NCBI RefSeq assembly: GCF_058153355.1
Contig: NZ_CM177019.1
Reading direction: 5' to 3' (one strand)
Length of the DNA: 64,000 nt
A program made the translations under genes and the position numbers. The stretch's first letter is position 1; every line of letters begins with the position of its first letter. This document shows, in pieces, positions 10,042-52,560 of this stretch. Below the pieces are notes generated by a model. The model saw only the letters and a list, made by a program, of their open reading frames with translations. It ran no database searches and was not told the DNA's origin.

Positions 10042-10124
10042 TTATTCAGTCGATAGTAACCCGCCCTCCGGGGATAGCAAGCATTTTTTGCAAAAAGGGG
10101 TAGATGCAATCGGTTACGCTCTGT

Positions 10125-23064: not shown

Positions 23065-23111
23065 TTACTTGCGGTAGAAAAATAAAAATTCGGCGCAATT
23101 CTAACAGGGAA

Positions 23112-23125
23112 AGCAAACGTTTGCG
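23112..23125. promoter_or_regulatory. PurR operator (pur box) in the purMN control region
   Basis: Palindrome AGCAAACGTTTGCG matches the PurR consensus core GCAAACGTTTGC, about 65 bp upstream of the purM start. Confidence 0.65.
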
Positions 23126-23323
23126 AGACTGCTTTACACAACCTTTTTGCACTTCATTTTCCCAAGCGCGCGGCGAAAGAATAGCTGCACCGTGGCAAAG
23201 GAGAGTTTTTGGATGGAATAATATTCTTTCATAACCACATGAATATAAAGTAACTTTATCTAAAACCGTTATCATTTTGACTAAAGTCAACGAAAATAAT
23301 ATTGCCGCCTTGAAGAAAGGAGG

Positions 23324-24083: not shown

Positions 24084-25373
24084 ATGACGCGCCGTGCTAT
24101 CGGGGTGAGTGAAAGACCGCCACTTTTACAAACAATCCCGCTTAGTTTGCAACATTTGTTCGCCATGTTTGGTGCAACCGTCCTGGTGCCCGTCTTATTT
24201 CATATTAACCCGGCGACTGTACTGTTATTCAATGGTATCGGGACGCTGCTGTATCTCTTCATCTGTAAAGGGAAAATCCCGGCTTATCTTGGTTCCAGCT
24301 TTGCCTTTATTTCACCGGTATTGTTACTGTTGCCGTTAGGGTATGAAGTCGCGCTGGGCGGCTTTATTATGTGCGGCGTGCTGTTCTGCCTGGTTTCTTT
24401 TATCGTGAAGAAAGCGGGGACCGGCTGGCTGGACGTGCTGTTTCCACCTGCGGCAATGGGCGCAATCGTTGCCGTCATCGGTCTGGAGTTGGCGGGCGTA
24501 GCTGCCGGTATGGCAGGTTTACTCCCGGCTGAAGGGCAAACGCCAGACTCCAAAACCATCATCATCTCCATTACCACGCTGGCAGTCACGGTTTTAGGTT
24601 CCGTGCTGTTTCGTGGTTTCCTGGCAATTATCCCGATTTTAATTGGCGTGCTGGTGGGCTACGCGCTCTCTTTCGCAATGGGAATTGTCGATACCACGCC
24701 GATTATTAACGCCCACTGGTTTGCGCTGCCAACTCTCTATACGCCGCGCTTCGAGTGGTTTGCCATTCTGACTATTCTGCCAGCGGCGTTAGTGGTTATT
24801 GCCGAACACGTAGGGCACCTGGTAGTAACGGCTAATATCGTCAAAAAAGATCTGCTGCGCGATCCAGGTCTGCACCGTTCGATGTTTGCTAACGGCTTGT
24901 CGACCGTGATCTCCGGCTTCTTTGGCTCTACGCCAAACACCACCTACGGGGAAAACATTGGCGTGATGGCGATCACCCGTGTTTACAGTACCTGGGTTAT
25001 CGGCGGGGCGGCGATTTTCGCTATCCTGCTTTCCTGCGTCGGTAAACTGGCTGCAGCTATCCAGATGATCCCATTGCCGGTGATGGGCGGCGTTTCGCTG
25101 CTGCTTTATGGTGTTATCGGTGCTTCCGGTATTCGTGTTTTGATCGAATCGAAAGTGGATTACAACAAAGCACAGAACCTGATCCTGACTTCTGTCATTT
25201 TGATCATCGGTGTCAGTGGCGCGAAGGTAAACATCGGCGCGGCGGAGCTGAAAGGTATGGCGCTGGCGACCATCGTCGGTATCGGCTTAAGTTTGATCTT
25301 CAAACTGATTAGTGTGCTGCGCCCTGAAGAAGTGGTGCTGGACGCAGAAGACGCGGATATAACAGACAAATAA
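24084..25373 (+). CDS. uraA: Uracil:H+ symporter
   Basis: Start placed at [36 protein letters not shown] after AGAGGA, giving 429 aa. Confidence 0.93.
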
Positions 25374-28330: not shown

Positions 28331-29392
28331 ATGCTCGAAATGTTGATGCAATGGTATCGCCGCCGTTTTAGCGACCCGGAAGCGATTGCCTTGCTGGTTA
28401 TTTTAGTTGCCGGATTTGGCATTATCTTTTTCTTTAGCGGCCTACTCGCACCGTTGCTGGTGGCGATTGTGCTGGCCTATTTACTGGAATGGCCAACCGT
28501 GCGCCTACAATCAATAGGCTGCTCCCGACGTTGGGCGACATCGATTGTATTGGTCGTTTTCGTCGGTATTTTGCTGCTGATGGCGTTCGTGGTAATGCCT
28601 ATCGCCTGGCAACAGGGCATCTACTTAATCCGTGATATGCCGGGGATGCTCAATAAGCTCTCTGATTTTGCCGCCACGTTGCCGCGCCGCTATCCGGCGT
28701 TAATGGATGCGGGGATTATTGATGCAATGGCCGAAAATATGCGCAGCCGGATGCTCACCATGGGCGATTCGGTGGTGAAAATTTCCCTCGCCTCGCTGGT
28801 CGGTTTGCTGACCATTGCCGTCTATCTGGTGCTGGTGCCATTGATGGTCTTCTTCCTGCTGAAAGACAAAGAGCAAATGTTGAACGCCGTTCGTCGGGTG
28901 CTGCCGCGTAACCGTGGACTGGCAGGACAGGTGTGGAAGGAGATGAATCAACAAATCACCAACTATATCCGCGGCAAAGTGCTGGAGATGATCGTGGTGG
29001 GGATTGCCACCTGGCTGGGATTCTTACTCTTCGGGCTGAACTATTCGCTGCTGCTGGCGGTGCTGGTCGGCTTCTCGGTACTTATTCCGTACATTGGTGC
29101 ATTTGTGGTGACCATTCCGGTGGTTGGCGTGGCGCTATTCCAGTTTGGTGCTGGCACGGAATTCTGGAGCTGCTTCGCGGTGTATCTGATCATTCAGGCG
29201 CTGGACGGCAACCTGTTAGTACCTGTGTTGTTCTCCGAAGCGGTTAACCTGCATCCGCTGGTCATTATTTTATCAGTAGTGATCTTCGGTGGTTTGTGGG
29301 GATTCTGGGGCGTATTCTTCGCCATTCCATTGGCGACGCTGATCAAAGCCGTGATTCACGCCTGGCCCGATGGGCAAATCGCGCAAGAATAA
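28331..29392 (+). CDS. perM: AI-2E-family permease PerM (YfgO)
   Basis: 353-aa polytopic membrane ORF at the K-12 perM position. Confidence 0.85.
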   Translation: MLEMLMQWYRRRFSDPEAIALLVILVAGFGIIFFFSGLLAPLLVAIVLAYLLEWPTVRLQSIGCSRRWATSIVLVVFVGILLLMAFVVMPIAWQQGIYLIRDMPGMLNKLSDFAATLPRRYPALMDAGIIDAMAENMRSRMLTMGDSVVKISLASLVGLLTIAVYLVLVPLMVFFLLKDKEQMLNAVRRVLPRNRGLAGQVWKEMNQQITNYIRGKVLEMIVVGIATWLGFLLFGLNYSLLLAVLVGFSVLIPYIGAFVVTIPVVGVALFQFGAGTEFWSCFAVYLIIQALDGNLLVPVLFSEAVNLHPLVIILSVVIFGGLWGFWGVFFAIPLATLIKAVIHAWPDGQIAQE

Positions 29393-38008: not shown

Positions 38009-39448
38009 TTACTGCAACCAGGTCGCGGCGAATACGCTGGAAATCAGCGACATCACAATCAGTACAATCAACACCAGGCGCATTGATCCTGGCAGCGGTG
38101 CGGCATCGGCGACGGCTTCGCTCGGTTTGCCAGGCACGATGCGACCAAACCAGCGAATAAACCAGGCGAAACTGGCGACCGATTCAATCATCAGCAGAAT
38201 CATGGCGGGCAGCAGGATCCAGTACTCCTCTGACAACGAAAAACCGGCAGCAAACAGTGGGAATTTACTGAAGAAGCCGTTGAACGGCGGCACGCCAGTA
38301 ATCGCCAGCGCGGCCACGCAGAAACCCACGCCAGGCAACGGCAGGGTGTGCAATACGCCACGCAGACGCGGCAACAAGCGCGTGCCGCAGCTGTAACTCA
38401 GCGCACCTGCTACAAGGAAAAACAGGCTTTTAGCGAACGCGTGGTTGACGATGTAGGCGATGCTGCCCTCCAGTGCCAGCCGCGAGCCGAAGATGGAGAG
38501 CGACAAGCCGAAGAACATCCAGCCAAGTTGAGTGATGGTCGACCAGGCCAGCAACCGCTTCATATCCTGCTGCGGCAAATACATCAGGAGGCCGTAAAGA
38601 ATGGTGACCAGTGCCATGACCATGCCAATGCCGCCAATCACATGCGGGATATTGCCGCCGTCGATAATGGCGCGGGCAAAAATGTAAACGCCCACTTTCA
38701 CCATCGATGCGGCGTGGAGATAGGCGCTGATCGGTGTTGGCGCTTCCATTGCATCCGGTAGCCACGCTTGCATCGGTAGCTGGGCCGATTTTCCCCACGC
38801 GGCAAACAGGATGCCGCCATAAACCAGATAACGTGCGTCGCCGTGTAACTCGCTCATCGCGCTAAGCGCAAACGTTCCGGTCTGCAAAAACAGCGTGGCG
38901 GCGGCAAGATACAACCCCAGCGAACCGATATGAGTGATAAGTAACGCTTTTAGTGCTGAACGTTGCGCTTTATCGCTCTGGTAATAACTGATCAACGCCC
39001 AGGAGCAGCCGCCCGTAATTTCAAAAAACAACAACTGACCGAGCAGCGTCGAGGAGAGTACCAGTCCCGCCATCGCGCCGATAAAAACCAGCAAAAATGC
39101 GTAATAACGATTCGTGCCGTTATGCGGGTGTTCGCGATTTTTATCCGTCAGATAACCCGTGGAGTAGATCGTGACCAGCAAACCGAGGAACACCACCACA
39201 AACAGAATCAGCGTACTCACGCGATCAATGACCAGGCCAAACAACGCCACATCCCCCACGTTGACCAACGTCAACGTGACGGCAACTTTATCGGCCTGAT
39301 AAAACGCGGAGATCAGCGACAACATGCACAGCGTGGTCAGCGCGGCGAACAAAATCCCCCATTCGGCGGCCCGACGTTGTGGCGAAAACGAAACGACCAG
39401 TGCGCCGATAAAAGGCAGCAATAACGTCGTCAGAGCAAGATTTTCCAT
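38009..39448 (-). CDS. hyfD: Hydrogenase-4 membrane subunit D (antiporter-like)
   Basis: 479-aa polytopic ORF. Confidence 0.88.
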   Translation of the reverse strand: MENLALTTLLLPFIGALVVSFSPQRRAAEWGILFAALTTLCMLSLISAFYQADKVAVTLTLVNVGDVALFGLVIDRVSTLILFVVVFLGLLVTIYSTGYLTDKNREHPHNGTNRYYAFLLVFIGAMAGLVLSSTLLGQLLFFEITGGCSWALISYYQSDKAQRSALKALLITHIGSLGLYLAAATLFLQTGTFALSAMSELHGDARYLVYGGILFAAWGKSAQLPMQAWLPDAMEAPTPISAYLHAASMVKVGVYIFARAIIDGGNIPHVIGGIGMVMALVTILYGLLMYLPQQDMKRLLAWSTITQLGWMFFGLSLSIFGSRLALEGSIAYIVNHAFAKSLFFLVAGALSYSCGTRLLPRLRGVLHTLPLPGVGFCVAALAITGVPPFNGFFSKFPLFAAGFSLSEEYWILLPAMILLMIESVASFAWFIRWFGRIVPGKPSEAVADAAPLPGSMRLVLIVLIVMSLISSVFAATWLQ

Positions 39449-39464: not shown

Positions 39465-40412
39465 TTACAGACCGGTTAACCAGAAGACCCAGGCAAGCGC
39501 AGCAAGGCTGAAGCCAAGCCAGGTCACATGGTGAATGAGTAAAAAACGCCCGCGTGCCAGCGTGTTTTCTGCGATAGAGGCCAGAACAAAAATCAGCAAA
39601 ACCTTGAGCAGCGTAACGACAAGTGAAGTCAGCAGGCAGGTGAGAGAAAGCTCTTGCGCGCGCCCAAAGGGCAGAAACAGGGCCACAAACAGTGCTGCCA
39701 TCACGACCTGTTTCAGCCCCAGCCCCAACTTCGCCAGCGCCAGCCCGGCACCGGAATATTCGGTCAGCGGGCCTTCCTGTAATTCCTGTTCTGCTTCAGC
39801 AACATCAAAGGGAATTTTTCCCATCTCAATGAAGCAGGCAAAACCACAGGCCAGTAACGCCAGTACGGTGGTTAGCGGCGAGTTCCAGCCCGTCGCCAGC
39901 GTCTTGCTGATCATCTCGATATGCGTGGAATCCGCTATCAGCGCCAATACCAGCAGTGAGAGAATGAGCATTGGTTCGACCAGAATGCCGAGCGTCAACT
40001 CGCGACTGGCACCGACTCCCGCAAACGGGCTTCCGGTATCCAGCCCGGAAAGAGCAAAGAAAAAACGAAACAGGGCAAGAAGATAGATAAGGGTGATCAG
40101 ATCGCCGCCGCCCGCAAAAGGGGAAACAGTAATAAATAGTGGTAGGGCCATCGCCAGCACCAGCATGCTGCTGATTAATACCCACGGCATCAGGCGGAAC
40201 ATCAGACCTGAAGATGTCGGCGCAACTTCCTGGCGTTTAAACAGTTTGTGGATATCGCGATAATCCTGCCAGATCCCCGGTCCGCGACGGGAGTGCATAC
40301 GCGCGCGTATCTGCCGGGAAATCCCTGTAAACAGTGGGGTTAGCGCCAGCAGAATCACGGCCTGTGCTAACGCAAAAATGATCAGATATCCGTCGCAAAG
40401 AGTTTGTCTCAT
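39465..40412 (-). CDS. hyfC: Hydrogenase-4 membrane subunit C (NuoH-like)
   Basis: Start placed at MRQTLCDGYLIIFALAQAV, internal to the track ORF. Confidence 0.85.
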   Translation of the reverse strand: MRQTLCDGYLIIFALAQAVILLALTPLFTGISRQIRARMHSRRGPGIWQDYRDIHKLFKRQEVAPTSSGLMFRLMPWVLISSMLVLAMALPLFITVSPFAGGGDLITLIYLLALFRFFFALSGLDTGSPFAGVGASRELTLGILVEPMLILSLLVLALIADSTHIEMISKTLATGWNSPLTTVLALLACGFACFIEMGKIPFDVAEAEQELQEGPLTEYSGAGLALAKLGLGLKQVVMAALFVALFLPFGRAQELSLTCLLTSLVVTLLKVLLIFVLASIAENTLARGRFLLIHHVTWLGFSLAALAWVFWLTGL

Positions 40413-40422
40413 GGTGATTTCC

Positions 40423-42441
40423 TTAGACGGCAATAGCGATTAGCAGCACAACCAGTGCGGCGACCACATACAGGCAATAGAGACGAAAGTCGCCGCTTTG
40501 CAGATGCTGTATTTCTTTGGCCAGCCGTTGGGTGGCGCTCACGATGGGGCGGAGCACCCGCTCATCCCAAAAGGGTTCTGTGCTCTGAGCCCTGGCGGTG
40601 ATGTGCGCGAGACCTTTGTTCAGCCTCAGCGTAGGGTCGAGCTGTTGTCGTAGACGAAATAGCGCAGAAAAGACCACACGCAGCGGCTGCATCACGCCAT
40701 TGCCTGACGGGGCCATCGCATTTTCCCAGCCGTAGCCGCATGCCCAGGCATCTCCTGTGCGACGAAACGCTGCGCGGCGCGAACGACACCACAGCCAGTA
40801 AAGGCCAGGCAGCAAAGGCATCGCCAGTAGTAACAGCAACAGTAATGAGGGAGTGACCTGTGTATGAAACGTGCCGGGGACAAGTGCCATTCCGCTGGCG
40901 ACAGTGACGGCAGGGGTATTGGTAAACGCATGGGCAATGTGCATTATTTTCGGTGCCAGCCAACTGGCACTAAGCGCAATTAATACGCAGAAAGCCGCGA
41001 GCAGTAACATGGCGACGATCATCGTATTTGGCACGTCCTGTGCCTCTTCAGCGTGTGTACTGCGCGGCGCACCACAGAAAGTAATGCCGTACATTTTGAC
41101 GAAGCACATTACTGCCAGCCCACCAGTGACTGCCAGCATCACCATAGCAATAGGACCCGCAAGTTGTAGCGCTACGGCTTCCACACGACTTAGTGAGAAC
41201 AGTGACTGCCAGGTGTACCATTCGCTGATAAAACCATTCAGCGGAGGAATGGCTGATATCGCGAGGCAACCAATCAGGCATGCTGCGGCTGTCCACGGCA
41301 TCCGTTTTGCCAGTGCCCCCATTTTTTCCATGTCGTGGGTATGCAAACGCGAAATAATCGCACCCGCGCCGAGAAATAGCAGCCCTTTGAACAGCGCATG
41401 GTTGAGCAGATGAAACAGTGCGCCGAGCAGTCCAACCACGGTGAGCAGCGGGTCGTGCAGTGACAGACCGACCATGGACACACCGACCGCCAGCAAAATA
41501 ATGCCGACGTTTTCGACGGTACTCCAGGCCAGCAGCCGTTTGATATCCTGTTCCGCCAGCGCATACAGCACGCCCAGGAGCGCGGAGATTGCGCCGATCG
41601 CCATCACCAGAATGCCCCACCACAGCGGCAAACCCGTTTGCGCCAGCAGATCCATCGCCACTTTCAGGATGCCGAAAATACCGATTTTGACCATTACGCC
41701 AGACATCAACGCCGAAGCGTGCGATGGTGCGGCAGGGTGAGCGCGCGGCAACCAGCTGTGCAACGGCATCATCCCGGCTTTCGCGCCAAAACCGAAGAAG
41801 GCCAGCAGGAACACCGCCGACGCCAGCCCCGGAGAAAGTGAAAGCGTGCGGAAACTGGCAAAATCGAGGTTGCCGCTTTCGCGCCACATCAGCAAGAAGG
41901 CAATCATAATCAGCACCGATCCGGCGTGGGCGATAAAAAAGTAGAGCATGCCAGCGTTGATTGACGTTTTATCCTGCCTGGCAATGACCAGAAACCAGGA
42001 AGACAGCGACATCATTTCAAACAGCACGATGAACCAAAAAGCGTTGTCCATCACCAGCAGGGCAACCATCGAGGCGATGAAAAGATTCATAAAGAAGCCC
42101 ATCGCCGCCGCGCCTTTGCCCTCGTATTCGCGCATATAAGTCAATGAATAGAGCGAACAAACCACCACCAGCAAGGAGATAACCAGCACCATAAATGCCG
42201 AGAGGCTATCCATTCGCAGGGTTAAATCGGCAAAGTCAAAAGGCGTGGCAAAACGGGCGACTAAAGTTACGCCTGCATGTAATTGCGTAATTCCGCTGAT
42301 GATGCCAATCGCGCCGCCCACCAGCGATGTGATGCCGGAAAGCTTAATAGCCAGTCTGTCCAGACCGAGTAAAAACAGCGAAGCCAGACTGGCAAACAGA
42401 TAGAGGATCAGCGACCAGGTTAATAATTGCAGGGCATCCAT
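40423..42441 (-). CDS. hyfB: Hydrogenase-4 membrane subunit B (NuoL-like)
   Basis: 672-aa polytopic ORF. Confidence 0.9.
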   Translation of the reverse strand: MDALQLLTWSLILYLFASLASLFLLGLDRLAIKLSGITSLVGGAIGIISGITQLHAGVTLVARFATPFDFADLTLRMDSLSAFMVLVISLLVVVCSLYSLTYMREYEGKGAAAMGFFMNLFIASMVALLVMDNAFWFIVLFEMMSLSSWFLVIARQDKTSINAGMLYFFIAHAGSVLIMIAFLLMWRESGNLDFASFRTLSLSPGLASAVFLLAFFGFGAKAGMMPLHSWLPRAHPAAPSHASALMSGVMVKIGIFGILKVAMDLLAQTGLPLWWGILVMAIGAISALLGVLYALAEQDIKRLLAWSTVENVGIILLAVGVSMVGLSLHDPLLTVVGLLGALFHLLNHALFKGLLFLGAGAIISRLHTHDMEKMGALAKRMPWTAAACLIGCLAISAIPPLNGFISEWYTWQSLFSLSRVEAVALQLAGPIAMVMLAVTGGLAVMCFVKMYGITFCGAPRSTHAEEAQDVPNTMIVAMLLLAAFCVLIALSASWLAPKIMHIAHAFTNTPAVTVASGMALVPGTFHTQVTPSLLLLLLLAMPLLPGLYWLWCRSRRAAFRRTGDAWACGYGWENAMAPSGNGVMQPLRVVFSALFRLRQQLDPTLRLNKGLAHITARAQSTEPFWDERVLRPIVSATQRLAKEIQHLQSGDFRLYCLYVVAALVVLLIAIAV

Positions 42442-43058
42442 TAGCGTTGCTCCTGAGTGAGGGAAAGGGGATCCTCCCCGCCATTGGCAAACCAGCTTGC
42501 GGCAAGGCGCTGTTTTTCTTTCATCTGACGTTGCAGGCTATCGTCGGTGATCAGCCGTAACGCATGATTCGGGCAAGCGCGAACGCAGGCCGGACCTTCT
42601 GGCAAGAAATCACACAGGTCGCATTTCACCGCGACGGTCTGGACACCCGGTTCCCAGCGCAGCAAAGCATGTTGGGTCGGCGCGTTTTCTTCGCCGTCTT
42701 TGAGTGAGCCGTCAGCCTGAAAAACATATTGCGCAGGGGCATTCACCGGACGGCTTCCTGAAGCGCTGATTGCGCCAAATGGGCAGACCACGGCGCAAAG
42801 CTTGCAGCCAATACAGAGGCTTTCGTTGAGTTGGATCGCATCATCTCTCTGGGAGATGGCATTGACCGGGCAGACCTGCAGGCAAGGGGCTTCCTCACAG
42901 TGATGACACACGACAGGGGCAGTGAGTGTTGACGTCTTCGCCAGGGCCAGGCGCGGGTGTTGCTGTAAACCTTGCGTTTTATGCACGTCCGAACAGGCAG
43001 CGAGACAGGTATTACATCCTGTACACCACAGTGGTTCGGCCACCACAAAGCGGTTCAT
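42441..43058 (-). CDS. hyfA: Hydrogenase-4 ferredoxin-type subunit A
   Basis: Start placed at MNRFVVAEPLWCTGCNTCLAAC; multiple 4Fe-4S Cys clusters. Confidence 0.85.
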   Translation of the reverse strand: MNRFVVAEPLWCTGCNTCLAACSDVHKTQGLQQHPRLALAKTSTLTAPVVCHHCEEAPCLQVCPVNAISQRDDAIQLNESLCIGCKLCAVVCPFGAISASGSRPVNAPAQYVFQADGSLKDGEENAPTQHALLRWEPGVQTVAVKCDLCDFLPEGPACVRACPNHALRLITDDSLQRQMKEKQRLAASWFANGGEDPLSLTQEQR

Positions 43059-43099
43059 GTCGGCTCCTTGAAAATGATATGAAACATTGCATTTCATAT

Positions 43100-43115
43100 T
43101 GCATAAAGGATGCCA
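43100..43115 (-). promoter_or_regulatory. Candidate sigma54 (-24/-12) promoter of the hyf operon
   Basis: Minus strand reads TGGCATCCTTTATGCA, with GG and GC at the consensus spacing, about 42 bp upstream of the hyfA start. Confidence 0.5.
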
Positions 43116-43310
43116 GTCTGATTAATTTAATATATTCAATAAGTTATGTGTTAACTGGATTCTGAGCGGTACAAAAATGATGGTCATTAACGTTCAGCAA
43201 TAAATGGATTCGACACCCGTGTCGCAGGGGAAAGCGAGAATGTGATCTTGATCACGAGAAGTGAGATGTGCTGACCGCAAGCGCAGCCAGCACGGAATGG
43301 AGTAAAGTAA

Positions 43311-43781
43311 TCAGGCGTGTTCTTTCAGCCAGTTCAGCACAACGTCGTGGTGATTGCTGGTTTTGAAATCGTCAAAGACATGTTCGATTTTGCCATCAGC
43401 GTCAATCAGGAAGCTGATGCGATGAATACCATCGTAGGTTTTGCCCATGAAGGACTTTTCACCCCAGACGCCGAATTGTTCGCACACCTGGTGGTCCTCA
43501 TCAGACAGGAGCGTAAAGTTAAGCAGCTCTTTTTCCGCAAAACGGGAGAGTTTTTCGGGTTTATCGGTGCTGATACCCAGCACATCAACGCCCGCTTTTT
43601 TCAATTCATCCATGTTATCGCGTAAGCTGCAGGCCTGTACGGTACAGCCGGGAGTCATGGCTTTTGGGTAAAAATAAACCAGAACACGCTGTCCCTGGAA
43701 GTCGGTCAAATTAACTTGTTCTCCGTCTTGATCCGGCAAGCTAAATTTCGGTGCGATATCACCGGCTTTCAGTGGATTCAT
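43311..43781 (-). CDS. bcp: Thiol peroxidase / bacterioferritin comigratory protein (peroxiredoxin)
   Basis: 156-aa ORF with the peroxidatic Cys motif region (FYPKAMTPGCTVQAC). Confidence 0.9.
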   Translation of the reverse strand: MNPLKAGDIAPKFSLPDQDGEQVNLTDFQGQRVLVYFYPKAMTPGCTVQACSLRDNMDELKKAGVDVLGISTDKPEKLSRFAEKELLNFTLLSDEDHQVCEQFGVWGEKSFMGKTYDGIHRISFLIDADGKIEHVFDDFKTSNHHDVVLNWLKEHA

Positions 43782-44353
43782 TACTTAACTCCATCCTGTT
43801 CATCATGTGGGGAATAATTGACGACGTTTATACTGCCTTGTGCATTGAGTTCTGTACATAGGGCTTTAAACGCTTGCTCAATATTTGCTGCATCCGCAGA
43901 GGCGGGACTGTGGGCGGTTATCTGAATATGCAACTGTACAGCCCGTTCATTTTCAGCAGGTTGCGTGCGCGACACCAGCTCCGCAATGTTCATATGGTGC
44001 GCGTCGAAAAGTGCCGTGAAGCGTTCAATTAAATGCGGGGAGTCTGCCACATCGACCTGAACCCAGACAGATGCTGGCATTGGCGGACGCGGACGCGCCG
44101 TCGTGCGCTTCATCACGATTAAAAGATCCAGTTCGGCACCTTTCAACGGTAACGTTGATTCAATCAGAGTGATGGCATTCCATGAACCGGAAAGCAGCAT
44201 GATAAACGTGAACTCTTCTCCCAGCATTGCCAGGCGACTGTCTTCGATATTACAGCCGCAACTACTGACATGACGGGTGATGGTGTTCACAATTCCAGGG
44301 CGATCGGCACCCAACGCAGTGATCACCAGATAATGTTGCGATGACAGTGTCAA
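43781..44353 (-). CDS. gcvR: Glycine cleavage system transcriptional repressor GcvR
   Basis: Tandem ACT-domain protein. Start assigned to the TTG at 44351-44353 (..TLSSQHYLVITALGADRPGIV), giving 190 aa; the track ORF extends 22 codons further upstream. Confidence 0.75.
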   Translation of the reverse strand: MTLSSQHYLVITALGADRPGIVNTITRHVSSCGCNIEDSRLAMLGEEFTFIMLLSGSWNAITLIESTLPLKGAELDLLIVMKRTTARPRPPMPASVWVQVDVADSPHLIERFTALFDAHHMNIAELVSRTQPAENERAVQLHIQITAHSPASADAANIEQAFKALCTELNAQGSINVVNYSPHDEQDGVK

Positions 44354-44498
44354 ACTGGTTATTCCTTTAAGGGGTGAGTTGTTCTTAAGGAAAGCATAAA
44401 AAAAACATGCATACAACAATCAGAACGGTTCTGTCTGCTTGCTTTTAATGCCTTACCAAACGTACCATTGAGACACTTGTTTGCACAGAGGATGGCCC

Positions 44499-45377
44499 AT
44501 GTTCACGGGAAGTATTGTCGCGATTGTTACTCCGATGGATGAAAAAGGTAATGTCTGTCGGGCTAGCTTGAAAAAACTGATTGATTATCATGTCGCCAGC
44601 GGTACTTCGGCGATCGTTTCTGTTGGCACCACTGGCGAGTCCGCTACCTTAAATCATGACGAACATGCTGATGTGGTGATGATGACGCTGGAGCTGGCTG
44701 ACGGGCGCATTCCGGTAATTGCAGGGACCGGCGCTAATGCCACTACGGAAGCCATTAGCCTGACGCAGCGTTTCAATGACAGTGGTATCGTCGGCTGTCT
44801 GACGGTAACCCCTTACTATAATCGTCCGTCGCAAGAAGGTTTGTATCAGCATTTCAAAGCCATCGCTGAACATACTGACCTGCCGCAAATTCTGTATAAT
44901 GTGCCGTCCCGTACTGGTTGCGATCTGCTCCCGGAAACGGTGGGCCGTCTGGCGAAAGTAAAAAATATTATCGGAATCAAAGAGGCTACAGGGAACTTAA
45001 CGCGTGTAAACCAGATCAAAGAGCTGGTTTCAGATGATTTTGTTCTGCTGAGCGGCGATGATGCGAGCGCGCTGGACTTCATGCAATTAGGCGGTCATGG
45101 GGTTATTTCCGTTACGGCTAACGTCGCAGCGCGTGATATGGCCCAGATGTGCAAACTGGCGGCAGAAGGGCATTTTGCCGAGGCACGCGTTATTAATCAG
45201 CGTCTGATGCCATTACACAACAAACTATTTGTCGAACCCAATCCAATCCCGGTGAAATGGGCATGTAAGGAATTGGGTCTTGTGGCGACCGATACGCTGC
45301 GCCTGCCAATGACTCCAATCACCGACAGTGGTCGTGAGACGGTCAGAGCGGCGCTTAAGCATGCCGGTTTGCTGTAA
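44499..45377 (+). CDS. dapA: 4-hydroxy-tetrahydrodipicolinate synthase
   Basis: Start placed at [19 protein letters not shown], giving 292 aa. Confidence 0.95.
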
Positions 45378-45390
45378 AGTTTAGGGAGAT

Positions 45391-46428
45391 TTGATGGCTT
45401 ACTCTGTTCAAAAGTCGCGCCTGGCAAAGGTTGCGGGTGTTTCGCTTGTTTTATTACTCGCAGCCTGTAGTTCTGACTCACGCTATAAGCGCCAGGTCAG
45501 TGGTGATGAATCCTACCTGGAAGCAGCACCGCTTGCGGAGCTTCATGCCCCGGCTGGAATGATTTTGCCGGTGACCTCCGGTGATTACGCAATCCCGGTG
45601 ACCAACGGTAGTGGTGCTGTCGGTAAGGCGCTGGACATTCGTCCGCCAGCCCAGCCGCTGGCACTGGTTTCTGGCGCGCGTACCCAGTTCACGGGCGATA
45701 CCGCTTCATTGCTGGTGGAAAATGGTCGTGGCAATACTCTGTGGCCGCAGGTAGTTAGCGTGCTGCAGGCGAAAAACTACACCATCACCCAACGTGATGA
45801 TGCGGGTCAGACGCTGACCACCGATTGGGTACAATGGAACCGTCTGGACGAAGACGAGCAGTATCGTGGTCGTTATCAAATCTCTGTTAAACCGCAAGGT
45901 TATCAGCAGGCGGTTACGGTTAAACTGCTGAACCTGGAACAGGCGGGCAAACCGGTTGCAGACGCGGCTTCCATGCAGCGTTACAGCACGGAGATGATGA
46001 ACGTTATTTCCGCCGGTCTGGATAAATCTGCCACTGACGCCGCGAACGCTGCGCAAAATCGTGCCTCCACCACTATGGACGTACAAAGTGCAGCTGATGA
46101 CACCGGTTTACCGATGCTGGTCGTACGCGGGCCGTTCAATGTGGTTTGGCAACGTCTGCCAGCGGCGCTGGAAAAAGTGGGCATGAAAGTGACCGACAGC
46201 ACCCGTTCGCAGGGCAACATGGCCGTAACTTACAAGCCGCTATCTGACAGCGACTGGCAGGAACTGGGCGCGAGCGATCCAGGCCTGGCATCCGGTGACT
46301 ATAAACTGCAGGTTGGCGATTTAGATAACCGCAGCAGCCTACAGTTCATCGATCCGAAAGGTCATACTCTGACTCAGAGTCAGAACGACGCGCTGGTAGC
46401 TGTCTTCCAGGCTGCGTTTAGCAAGTAA
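45391..46428 (+). CDS. bamC: Outer-membrane protein assembly factor BamC (lipoprotein)
   Basis: 345-aa ORF with lipobox LLLAAC. Confidence 0.9.
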
Positions 46429-46435
46429 AAATACA

Positions 46436-46462
46436 GGGCTGGAGTCATCCGGCCCTTTTTTC
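46436..46462 (+). terminator. Intrinsic terminator after dapA-bamC
   Basis: Stem gggctgga/tccggccc with loop gtca, followed by a T7 run. Confidence 0.7.
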
Positions 46463-46471
46463 TGATATGAT

Positions 46472-46487
46472 ACGCAAACGTGTGCGT
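46472..46487. promoter_or_regulatory. PurR operator (pur box) upstream of purC
   Basis: ACGCAAACGTGTGCGT is a close match to the consensus ACGCAAACGTTTTCNT. Confidence 0.55.
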
Positions 46488-46525
46488 CGGCAGAAAAATG
46501 CGATTTTAGCGGTAATTCGCACGAA

Positions 46526-46570
46526 ATTTGTTTGTCGGACGCAGGTCGGATAAGGCGTTCACGCCGCATT
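46526..46570. repeat. REP-like palindromic unit
   Basis: gtcggataaggcgttcacgccgcattcgac resembles the REP consensus (GCCGGATGCGGCGTGAACGCCTTATCCGGC) in inverse orientation, with mismatches. Confidence 0.45.
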
Positions 46571-46639
46571 CGACAAACATCTGGCACATCAGACAGCAAA
46601 AGATTTTAAAACGTTAATTCACACCCAGGAGTGATAAAG

Positions 46640-47353
46640 ATGCAAAAGCAAGCTGAGTTGTATCGTGGTAAAGCGAAAACCGTATACAGCACGGAAAACC
46701 CGGACCTGTTGGTGCTCGAATTCCGCAATGATACGTCAGCAGGGGATGGCGCGCGCATTGAGCAGTTTGATCGCAAAGGTATGGTGAACAACAAGTTCAA
46801 CTACTTCATTATGAGCAAACTGGCTGAAGCGGGTATCCCGACTCAAATGGAGCGTCTGCTCTCCGATACCGAGTGTCTGGTGAAAAAGCTGGATATGGTG
46901 CCGGTTGAGTGTGTCGTGCGTAACCGTGCTGCTGGCTCTCTGGTGAAACGTCTTGGAATCGAAGAAGGTATTGAGCTGAACCCGCCGCTGTTCGATCTGT
47001 TCCTGAAAAACGACGCCATGCACGATCCGATGGTCAACGAATCTTACTGCGAAACCTTTGGCTGGGTAAGTAAAGAGAACCTGGCGCGTATGAAAGAGCT
47101 GACCTACAAAGCGAACGACGTGCTGAAAAAACTGTTCGATGATGCTGGTCTGATTCTGGTCGACTTCAAGCTGGAGTTTGGCCTGTACAAAGGCGAAGTG
47201 GTTCTGGGCGATGAGTTCTCCCCGGACGGCAGCCGCCTGTGGGACAAAGAAACGCTGGAGAAAATGGATAAAGACCGTTTCCGCCAGAGCCTCGGTGGCC
47301 TGATCGAAGCCTATGAAGCCGTTGCCCGCCGCCTGGGTGTACAGCTGGACTGA
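46640..47353 (+). CDS. purC: SAICAR synthetase
   Basis: Start placed at [28 protein letters not shown], giving 237 aa. Confidence 0.95.
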
Positions 47354-47520
47354 TTTTTCTATTCATCATCTTGCCGTGCTGCTGGCACGGCAAGACAACC
47401 GCTCTCATAAGATGTGCATTGAACGCTCATTCCTCCGCCATTTCATCCCGCTTTCCTGTGGTAATCTTCCTCTGAACCACCTACGATCATTTCTATAATG
47501 AATATATTGTTGAGGTATCT

Positions 47521-48384
47521 ATGCGTTGGCAAGGGCGACGTGAAAGTGACAATGTTGAAGACAGGCGCAATAGCTCCGGTGGTCCGTCAATGGGCGGTCC
47601 CGGTTTCCGTCTGCCAAGCGGTAAAGGCGGGCTGATTTTACTGATAGTCGTGCTGGTTGCAGGCTACTATGGCGTTGATTTAACCGGATTGATGACCGGA
47701 CAGCCGGTTTCCCAACAACAATCAACGCGGTCAATTAGCCCTAATGAAGACGAAGCCGCAAAATTCACCTCGGTGATTCTGGCAACCACCGAAGACACCT
47801 GGGGACAGCAGTTCGAGAAGATGGGTAAGACCTATCAGCAACCGAAGCTGGTCATGTACCGTGGAATGACGCGCACCGGCTGCGGGGCGGGCCAGTCCAT
47901 TATGGGACCGTTCTATTGCCCGGCGGATGGCACGGTTTATATCGATCTCTCCTTCTATGATGACATGAAAGACAAACTTGGCGCGGATGGCGATTTTGCC
48001 CAGGGGTACGTTATCGCCCATGAAGTCGGTCATCATGTGCAGAAACTGTTAGGCATCGAGCCGAAAGTTCGTCAACTGCAACAAAACGCGACGCAGGCGG
48101 AAGTAAACCGCTTATCTGTGCGTATGGAACTCCAGGCCGACTGTTTTGCCGGTGTCTGGGGGCATAGCATGCAGCAGCAAGGCGTTCTGGAAACCGGCGA
48201 TCTGGAAGAAGCGCTGAACGCGGCGCAGGCCATCGGCGATGACCGTTTACAGCAGCAAAGTCAGGGGCGAGTCGTACCAGACAGTTTCACTCATGGCACT
48301 TCTCAGCAACGCTACAGCTGGTTTAAACGTGGTTTCGACAGCGGCGATCCGGCACAATGCAATACTTTTGGTAAAAGCATTTAA
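47521..48384 (+). CDS. ypfJ: Predicted zinc metallopeptidase YpfJ
   Basis: 287-aa ORF with an N-terminal TM segment and HExxH ([10 protein letters not shown]). Confidence 0.85.
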
Positions 48385-48398
48385 CTTTCGGGGCAGGG

Positions 48399-50414
48399 AT
48401 GGCTGAACTGACTGCGCTTCACCCATTAACAGCGCAAATGAAACGTGAAGGGATCCGCCGCTTGCTGGTGTTGAGCGGGGAAGAACGTTGGTGCTTTAAC
48501 CTTGCGCTTAAGTTGAGTGATGCCTTACCTGGCGACTGGTTGTGGGTTTCGCCGCAGCCAGTCGCTGAAAACTACTGTACTCCCTCGACGCTACAAACTT
48601 TACTTGGACGCGAGTTCCGGCATGCGGTATTCGACGCCCGCCAGGGCTTTGATGCCGCTGCCTTTGCGGCACTTAGCGGAACGTTGAAAGCGGGAAGCTG
48701 GCTGGTGTTGTTACTCCCTGTATGGGAAGAGTGGGAGAACCAACCTGATGCCGACTCGCTGCGCTGGAGTGATTGCCCTGACCCTATTGCGACGCCGCAT
48801 TTTATCCGGCACCTCAAACGCGTACTTACGGCGGATCACGACGCTATCCTCTGGCGGCAAAACCAGCCGTTCACGTTGACGCATTTTATTCCCCGTACTG
48901 ACTGGCAACCCGCGACTGGCGCACCACAACCAGAACAACAGCAACTCTTACAGCAGCTACTCACCATGCCGCCGGGCGTGTCAGCGGTAACTGCTGCGCG
49001 TGGGCGCGGTAAGTCGGCGCTGGCAGGGCAACTCATTTCTCGTATTGCGGGTAGTGCGATTGTCACCGCGCCTGCAAAAGCGGCAACGGATGTACTGGCA
49101 CAATTTGCGGGCGAAAAGTTTCGCTTTATTGCGCCGGATGCGTTGTTAGCCAGCAATGAGCAAGCCGACTGGCTGGTGGTTGACGAAGCCGCGGCCATAC
49201 CTGCGCCGTTGTTGCATCAACTGGTATCGCGTTTTCCTCGAACGTTGTTAACCACTACGGTGCAGGGCTACGAAGGTACCGGACGTGGTTTTTTGCTGAA
49301 ATTTTGTGCGCGTTTCCCGCATTTACACCGTTTCGAATTGCAACAGCCGATCCGCTGGGCGCAGGGATGCCCGCTGGAAAAAGTGGTCAGCGAGGCACTG
49401 GTTTTTGACGATGAAAACTTCACTCACGAACCACAAGGTGACATCGTCATTTCCGCTTTTGAACAGACCTTATGGCGAAGCGATCCGGATACACCGTTAA
49501 AGGTATATCAGCTATTGTCTGGCGCGCACTACCGGACCTCGCCGCTGGATTTACGCCGCATGATGGATGTACCTGGGCAACATTTTTTCCAGGCGGCTTG
49601 TGAAAACGAGATCGCCGGGGCGCTGTGGCTGGTCGAGGAGGGCGGATTATCTCAAGAACTCAGCCAGGCGGTATGGGCAGGTTTTCGTCGCCCGCGGGGT
49701 AATCTGGTAGCCCAGTCGCTGGCGGCGCACGGCAGCAATCCACTGGCAGCGACATTGCGCGGACGGCGGGTCAGCAGGATAGCAGTTCATCCAGCTCGTC
49801 AGCGTGAAGGCATTGGGCAACAGCTTATTGCCCGTGCTTTAAACTATACGCATGACCTCGACTATCTTTCGGTGAGTTTTGGCTACACCGCGGAGTTATG
49901 GCGTTTCTGGCAACGCTGCGGTTTTGTGCTGGTGCGAATGGGTAATCATCGTGAAGCCAGCAGCGGTTGCTATACGGCGATGGCACTGTTACCGATGAGT
50001 GATGAGGGTAAACAGCTGGCTGAACGTGAGCATTACCGTTTACGTCGCGATGTGCATGCTCTCACGCAGTGGAATGGCGAAACGCTCCCCGTCGATCCAC
50101 GAAATGATGCCGTCCTTTCTGAGGACGACTGGCTTGAACTGGCCGGTTTTGCTTTCGCTCATCGTCCGCTATTAACGTCGTTAGGTTGCTTAACGCGTCT
50201 GCTACAAACCAGTGAACTGGCATTACCGGCGCTGCGTGGTCGTTTACAGAAAAACGCCAGTGACGCGCAGTTATGTACCACACTTAAACTTTCAGGCCGC
50301 AAGATGTTACTGGCCCGTCAGCGAGAAGAGGCCGCGCAGGCGCTGTTCGCACTTGATAATGTTCGCACTGAGCGTCTGCGCGATCGCATAACGCAATGGC
50401 AATTTTTTCACTGA
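48399..50414 (+). CDS. tmcA: tRNA(Met) cytidine acetyltransferase TmcA
   Basis: 671-aa ORF with helicase-like Walker A (ARGRGKSA) and a C-terminal GNAT region. Confidence 0.9.
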   Translation: MAELTALHPLTAQMKREGIRRLLVLSGEERWCFNLALKLSDALPGDWLWVSPQPVAENYCTPSTLQTLLGREFRHAVFDARQGFDAAAFAALSGTLKAGSWLVLLLPVWEEWENQPDADSLRWSDCPDPIATPHFIRHLKRVLTADHDAILWRQNQPFTLTHFIPRTDWQPATGAPQPEQQQLLQQLLTMPPGVSAVTAARGRGKSALAGQLISRIAGSAIVTAPAKAATDVLAQFAGEKFRFIAPDALLASNEQADWLVVDEAAAIPAPLLHQLVSRFPRTLLTTTVQGYEGTGRGFLLKFCARFPHLHRFELQQPIRWAQGCPLEKVVSEALVFDDENFTHEPQGDIVISAFEQTLWRSDPDTPLKVYQLLSGAHYRTSPLDLRRMMDVPGQHFFQAACENEIAGALWLVEEGGLSQELSQAVWAGFRRPRGNLVAQSLAAHGSNPLAATLRGRRVSRIAVHPARQREGIGQQLIARALNYTHDLDYLSVSFGYTAELWRFWQRCGFVLVRMGNHREASSGCYTAMALLPMSDEGKQLAEREHYRLRRDVHALTQWNGETLPVDPRNDAVLSEDDWLELAGFAFAHRPLLTSLGCLTRLLQTSELALPALRGRLQKNASDAQLCTTLKLSGRKMLLARQREEAAQALFALDNVRTERLRDRITQWQFFH

Positions 50415-50463
50415 CTCCTTCAATTTTCTCCCATGGTCATTGTGAGTCAGCGGCGTAAAATTA

Positions 50464-51189
50464 ATGACATCAGTTAAGGAGTTCGCCATGAAACATGACC
50501 ATTTTGTTGTTCAAAGCCCGGATAAACCTGCACAACAGTTGTTACTGCTTTTCCACGGTGTCGGGGATAACCCGGTAGCGATGGGTGAGATCGGCAGCTG
50601 GTTTGCGCCGCTGTTTCCTGATGCACTGGTGGTGAGCGTCGGTGGCGCGGAGCCGAGCGGTAATCCGGCGGGGCGTCAGTGGTTTTCGGTGCAGGGTATT
50701 ACGGAAGATAATCGCTAGGCGCGTGTGGATGCCATCATGCCGACGTTTATTGAGACGGTGCGCTACTGGCAGAAACAGAGCGGAGTAGGGGCAAACGCCA
50801 CGGCGCTAATCGGTTTCTCACAAGGCGCGATTATGGCGCTGGAGAGCATTAAAGCCGAACCGGGTCTTGCTTCGCGCGTCATTGCCTTTAACGGACGTTA
50901 TGCCAGCTTGCCGGAAACCGCGTCTACAGCCACGACAATTCACTTGATTCATGGCGGTGAAGATCCGGTTATCGATCTGGCGCATGCGGTTGCGGCGCAG
51001 GAAGCGTTAATCAGTGCAGGTGGTGATGTGACGCTGGATATTGTGGAGGATTTAGGCCATGCAATCGACAATCGCAGTATGCAATTTGCCCTGGATCACT
51101 TGCGTTATACCATTCCGAAACATTATTTCGACGAAGCGCTAAGTGGTGGCAAACCTGGCGATGATGATGTAATTGAAATGATGCAATAA
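50464..51189 (+). pseudogene. ypfH: Esterase YpfH interrupted by an in-frame amber codon (TAG at 50716-50718)
   Basis: Track ORFs 50464-50718 and 50725-51189 are in the same frame and read straight through one TAG (..GITEDNR*ARVDAIMPTF..). The intact homolog as I recall it has Gln here. Confidence 0.7.
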
Positions 51190-51256
51190 TAGCCTGGTAG
51201 ATACTGTTATGGCCTGCAAGTTTTTTTCTACCCCGGTTTCCCAGATTGCAGGCATG

Positions 51257-52560
<1,304 letters not shown>

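Follow-up and report, generated by a model that had tools for sequence, protein, structure and literature searches.

A PurR operator upstream of purC in a close relative of Escherichia coli, identical to that of K-12

Introduction

In the hands of He and co-workers in 1990, PurR reportedly bound the purC operator in vitro, and a purC-lacZ fusion is said to have been regulated in a purR-dependent manner. Later papers cite this and other early work, both genetic and in vitro (Meng et al., 1990, PMID 2404765; He, 1990; Tiedeman, 1990). Genome-wide, PurR sites in E. coli K-12 share the consensus ACGNAAACGTTTGCNT and generally lie between the -35 and -10 elements, as they do at 14 of the 32 regulated promoters (Cho et al., 2011; PMC3159470). 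The same study places the motif ACGCACACGTTTGCGT under the purC ChIP-chip peak, at 2,595,794–2,595,809, with a log2 enrichment of 2.08 in the presence of adenine, the maximum in the table, and 1.52 in its absence. The purC promoter was also used as the showcase of the IPOD-HR method (Freddolino et al., 2021; PMC8282354). In wild-type cells grown in rich medium, occupancy corrected for polymerase peaks right at the PurR site annotated upstream of purC. Deleting purR or growing the cells in minimal medium abolishes this peak, and RNA polymerase is substantially more abundant at purC in the purR deletion (Freddolino et al., 2021).

Here we analyze the purC upstream region in a 64-kb stretch of Escherichia DNA, referred to as the window. 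The region contains a 16-bp near-palindrome, which we take, with a probability of about 95%, to be the operator through which the LacI-family regulator PurR represses purC. An earlier note on this DNA, made from its letters, had placed a PurR operator upstream of purC. That reading is borne out: the site is, base for base, the K-12 purC operator, for which in vivo occupancy has been published. The note was also correct in placing the site 3′ of the bamC terminator and 5′ of purC (Table 1), and its assignment of purC to the purine regulon is supported by the K-12 ChIP-chip data and the purR-dependent IPOD-HR peak. It was silent on two points taken up below, the overlap with the transcription start site (TSS) and the long-known status of the operator.

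Results

The operator and its setting

Direct reading of the window places ACGCAAACGTGTGCGT in the 212-nt intergenic region between bamC and purC. The sequence is a 16-bp imperfect palindrome of the PUR box type (ACGCAAACGTTTGCGT / ACGNAAACGTTTGCNT): of its 16 positions, 15 agree with the perfect palindrome ACGCAAACGTTTGCGT and 14 are self-complementary. Its centre is a CpG step, with C at 46479 and G at 46480 (operator positions 8–9), and this step is invariant across all aligned species. In the structures of PurR bound to the purF operator, the hinge helices insert Leu54 at the central CpG step. From the end of the operator to the purC ATG there are 152 nt.

The NCBIfam equivalog scores of PurC, BamC, DapA and YpfJ are all far over the cut-off. 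The purC protein is 100% identical to those of the E. coli and E. albertii loci. The upstream locus carries the same name, bamC, in annotated E. coli genomes; its start is probably an ATG a few bases inside the annotated one.

Table 1. Features of the dapA-ypfJ region, in window coordinates.
Feature	Position	Strand	Basis or remark
dapA	44499–45377	+	NCBIfam equivalog, DapA 421 bits
bamC CDS, upstream gene	45391–46428 (stop 46426–46428)	+	ORF; NCBIfam NF008674 BamC, 568 bits
bamC intrinsic terminator	46435–46462	+	hairpin 46435–46456, then T-run
Extended -10, TGaTATGAT	46463–46471	+	sequence reading; canonical spacing to published K-12 TSS
PurR operator (PUR box), ACGCAAACGTGTGCGT	46472–46487	.	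read on + strand; spans -6 to +10 of purC promoter
Inferred purC TSS, A, operator base 7	46478	+	K-12 TSS, from the purC entry of a published supplement, transferred by alignment
purC 5′ untranslated leader, 162 nt	46478–46639	+	Shine-Dalgarno AGGAG 46627–46631
REP-like palindromic insertion in leader	46523–46611	+	gap of ~100 nt in other genera (alignment A2)
purC CDS (SAICAR synthetase), regulated gene	46640–47353	+	NCBIfam TIGR00081 PurC, 290 bits
ypfJ	47521–48384	+	NCBIfam, YpfJ 380 bits

The window is Escherichia DNA in reversed orientation relative to K-12. The 16-mer, the terminator T-run and the -10 element are the same, base for base, in K-12 MG1655, and the intergenic region as a whole is 98% identical to that of MG1655. 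The operator lies at 2,597,772–2,597,787 of NC_000913.3. The published motif ACGCACACGTTTGCGT is the reverse complement of ACGCAAACGTGTGCGT, and the two sets of coordinates agree after the 1978-nt offset between genome versions. Compared with 5426 complete E. coli genomes, positions 40000–52000 of the window (12 kb) are ~97.0% identical to the best match, a level more in keeping with a sister or divergent lineage of Escherichia than with typical E. coli. For the purC intergenic region the best identity among E. coli genomes is 98.4%. The strain of the window would be expected to behave like K-12 in both PurR occupancy and transcription start.

Terminator, promoter and transcription start

The purC entry in supplementary file 2 of Kim et al. 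(2012; PMC3415461) places the K-12 TSS at 2,595,803 (-) of NC_000913.2, with a 163-nt 5′ UTR and an upstream sequence ending in CTGATATGATACGCAAA; the accessible part of this supplement yielded no Klebsiella TSS for KPN_02810. By alignment, transcription would start inside the operator, so that the box, located upstream of the PurC gene, overlaps the published purC TSS and covers -6 to +10. On the same numbering TATGAT (46466–46471) occupies -12 to -7 and the TG dinucleotide (46463–46464) -15/-14. This extended -10 element adjoins the operator; K-12, E. albertii, Citrobacter and Pseudocitrobacter carry it unchanged. A -35 element would have to lie within the bamC terminator hairpin, where, depending on the spacer, 0 to 3 of 6 positions agree with TTGACA. 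A generic two-hexamer sigma-70 promoter scan of 46300–46750 found nothing, since no -35 is present, and the promoter assignment therefore rests on the published K-12 TSS. A promoter farther downstream, whose -35 the operator would cover, was also considered and rejected: the candidate -10, AAAAAT (46495–46500), is not conserved in K-12, and the mapped TSS lies upstream of it.

The bamC terminator begins 7 nt past the stop codon and consists of 9 pairs, 6 of them G-C, with a 4-nt loop and a TTTTTT tail. It fills the part of the purC promoter where the -35 and the spacer would lie; terminator and promoter are thus tightly packed. In alignment A2 the stem is kept across genera by compensatory changes (CTGG/CCAG, CCGG/CCGG, CCAG/CTGG).

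The overlap of operator and TSS would explain repression. In the presence of hypoxanthine or guanine, a PurR dimer carrying its corepressor would occupy the 16-bp near-palindrome. Bound at -6 to +10, it would most likely prevent RNA polymerase binding or open-complex formation, and purC transcription would drop. When purines run short PurR would dissociate, and purC would be transcribed by itself, behind a 162-nt leader. Steric occlusion of RNA polymerase is the most likely mechanism, and the higher polymerase occupancy in the K-12 purR deletion agrees with exclusion of polymerase by PurR. This scheme assumes that the host genome has a purR gene, which would lie outside the window; in K-12 purR is near 1.74 Mb, far outside the region homologous to the window (Cho et al., 2011, Table 1).

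The position of the operator, which begins 16 nt past the bamC terminator and only 10 nt past its T-run, raises the question whether PurR acts chiefly as a roadblock behind the terminator, rather than or besides blocking initiation at purC. There is precedent, as PurR blocks elongation at purB and purR (Cho et al., 2011). However, a TSS inside the operator, as the K-12 entry has it, and an adjoining -10 element suffice for repression of initiation. In addition, the bamC terminator is strong and structurally conserved, so little read-through is expected. We therefore regard a chiefly roadblocking operator as very unlikely. As a secondary function a roadblock against bamC read-through is possible: bound PurR could halt polymerases arriving from dapA-bamC and insulate purC from the transcription of envelope and lysine genes.

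Matrix scan of the window

We built a log-odds PurR matrix from 24 of the motif sites that Cho et al. (2011) list in their Table 1. The purC site was withheld, as were the other three that lie in the K-12 counterpart of the window. This matrix scan, proposed as a check in the earlier note, ranked the purC operator first among the 128,000 positions on both strands of the window, at 18.5 bits. The score falls within the range of the 28 published motif sites (11.6–25.0 bits). From the exact score distribution, P is 2.9e-7 per position at 18.5 bits, corresponding to 0.038 expected chance matches per window (both strands) and 1.3e-4 in the 212-nt intergenic region. Counted as mismatches to the palindrome, three sites in the whole window have at most three, compared with 0.47 expected, and the purC operator is the only one with a single mismatch. 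The scan also regained three internal positive controls: purMN (23111–23126), guaBA (10104–10119) and yfgO/yfgC (28376–28391). The sequences of these sites in the window are those listed by Cho et al. (Table 1).

Two further matches lie on the - strand. One, ACGGCAACGATTGCGC, is inside the uraA coding sequence at 24460–24475. Its score of 17.65 bits exceeds that of the genuine purMN operator, and K-12 has the same sequence (NC_000913.3 2,619,769–2,619,784); Cho et al. (2011) list no ChIP-chip peak for it. The other, ACCGGAACGTTTGCGC, is a weak match of 14.2 bits at 38866–38881 in a region homologous to the hyf operon. It is probably due to chance, as ~0.7 such matches are expected per window.

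Could the purC 16-mer itself be a chance near-palindrome with no regulatory role? Shuffled windows sometimes score as high (the largest score among 100 was 20.97 bits), and the uraA box reaches a similar score with no reported ChIP-chip peak. Against this stand the very low expectation for the purC intergenic region itself and the published purR-dependent occupancy in ChIP-chip and IPOD-HR, which refutes a chance origin. The 16-mer is moreover invariant in 26 species while its flanks diverge, and it is kept in nearly all E. coli genomes (see below). A fortuitous palindrome is hardly credible.

Conservation of the operator

Of 5426 complete E. coli genomes, 5414 have the 33-bp stretch comprising the -10 element and the operator, and in 5391 records it is at least 99% identical. 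For a broader view we sampled 80 purC loci from distinct GTDB species and searched the 400 nt before purC for boxes scoring 14 bits or more. Such a box was found in 45 of the 80 species, compared with 0 of 240 equal-sized control windows placed inside purC, downstream of it or farther upstream. The exact 16-mer occurs in 26 species of Enterobacteriaceae, whose genera include Escherichia, Enterobacter, Citrobacter, Kluyvera, Pluralibacter, Phytobacter and Siccibacter. In alignment A2 (14 sequences), all 16 operator columns are invariant, compared with a mean column identity of 57%, and the operator stands out as a conserved footprint between diverged flanks. Different boxes, scoring 17–24 bits, are found upstream of purC in Erwiniaceae, Serratia, Providencia, Morganella and Edwardsiella.

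About 20 Enterobacterales, among them Yersinia, Photorhabdus, Pectobacterium, Rahnella, Budvicia, Cedecea neteri and Mangrovibacter, have no recognisable PurR box upstream of purC, and PurR control of purC is therefore not universal in the order. Most of these species keep bamC directly upstream. Displacement of the box farther upstream was rejected as an explanation: in 18 of 20 there is nothing of 11 bits or more within 1500 nt. No PurR box was found upstream of purC in the more distant gammaproteobacteria sampled. The purC PurR box is thus well conserved in Enterobacteriaceae and not universal.

The box-less bamC-purC intergenic regions (loci L019, L022, L023, L027, L028, L035, L040, L043 and others) have features of their own. 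In L022 and L027 there is an insertion that we take to resemble an ERIC-type repeat. A motif CGCGTTAA(A/G) is common to several other loci (L019, L028, L035).

The asymmetric base pair

The sole departure of the operator from the perfect palindrome is the G at 46482, which corresponds to +5 of the transcript. This G is kept in all 26 species with the exact 16-mer. In two loci, both labelled Enterobacter sp. (L021:1400–1420 and L064:1430–1450), the operator reads ACGCACACGTTTGCGT in the direction of purC, with the non-palindromic base pair in the half-site opposite to that of E. coli. Neither a perfect palindrome nor a doubly asymmetric operator was found among the species examined. This pattern hints at selection for a single mismatch. 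A single asymmetry would be consistent with selection for a PurR affinity below the maximum, or for a particular sequence at the start of the transcript. On a broader proposal, the box would do more than switch purC on and off, its form and position also serving to tune affinity or initial sequence and to insulate purC from read-through; we consider this unlikely.

The purC leader

The purC leader of the window contains a REP-like insertion that was seen in Escherichia sequences only (Table 1). Due to this insertion of ~100 nt, the distance from the operator centre to the purC ATG is 160 nt in Escherichia, compared with ~57–68 nt in most other Enterobacteriaceae. The insertion is flanked by 13-nt direct repeats, CGGTAATTCGCAC / CGTTAATTCACAC, at 46510–46522 and 46612–46624; other Enterobacteriaceae have one copy of the repeat. 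Its inverted arms lie at 46529–46542 and 46566–46579.

An Rfam scan of 46200–46900 gave no family at threshold, including no riboswitch or leader family; the only match was a sub-threshold one to naRNA4, which is REP-derived, at 46544–46581. A structured regulatory leader was rejected, as the 183-nt leader plus start folds no more stably than its shuffles (z = -0.87). The palindrome could in principle form a 5-bp RNA stem (ACGCA/TGCGT) in the purC leader or at the bamC 3′ end, or bind a different LacI-family regulator, but these roles have a negligible probability: the Rfam scan gave no match at the operator, folding of the leader is not significant, transcription starting at operator base 7, as in the K-12 entry, leaves the 5′ arm out of the purC mRNA, and occupancy is lost specifically in the purR deletion.

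Discussion

The purC PurR operator of the window is already known: it is the K-12 operator in a close relative of E. coli. PurR control of purC in E. coli was documented in 1990 and re-confirmed genome-wide in 2011 and 2021, and the present analysis therefore adds nothing on purine regulation. The site is a standard PurR control element on purC in an Escherichia genome, useful for annotation and for regulon reconstruction. Modest added value lies in the geometry of operator, promoter and terminator, in the phylogenetic extent of the box, and in the Escherichia-specific REP insertion in the leader.

Among the described PurR sites, the intragenic operators of purB and purR involve the same protein and the same box as purC. 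They differ in that they lie inside coding sequences and block elongation (PMC3159470), whereas the purC box overlaps the transcription start.

The operators of purF, purMN, purL, purHD, purEK and purT have the same consensus, ACGNAAACGTTTGCNT, with the central CpG, and most of them overlap the promoter. Unlike PurR sites in general, which Cho et al. place between the -35 and -10 elements, the purC box of the window is predicted to sit at -6 to +10, over the TSS of a promoter with an extended -10 and no -35. A looser analogy is offered by the PurR/PurBox system of Bacillus subtilis, which follows the same logic, repression of purine synthesis genes. It is an analogy only: the B. subtilis PurR protein is unrelated, having a PRT-family fold and sensing PRPP, and the DNA motif is unrelated too.

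The closest described system remains the purC operator of E. coli K-12 (RegulonDB/EcoCyc). It shares with the window the same 16 bp, the same -10 element, the same context between the bamC terminator and purC, and the same position relative to the TSS. There is no difference within the operator, and across the intergenic region the two differ at ~12 positions, one of them a 1-nt indel within the leader.
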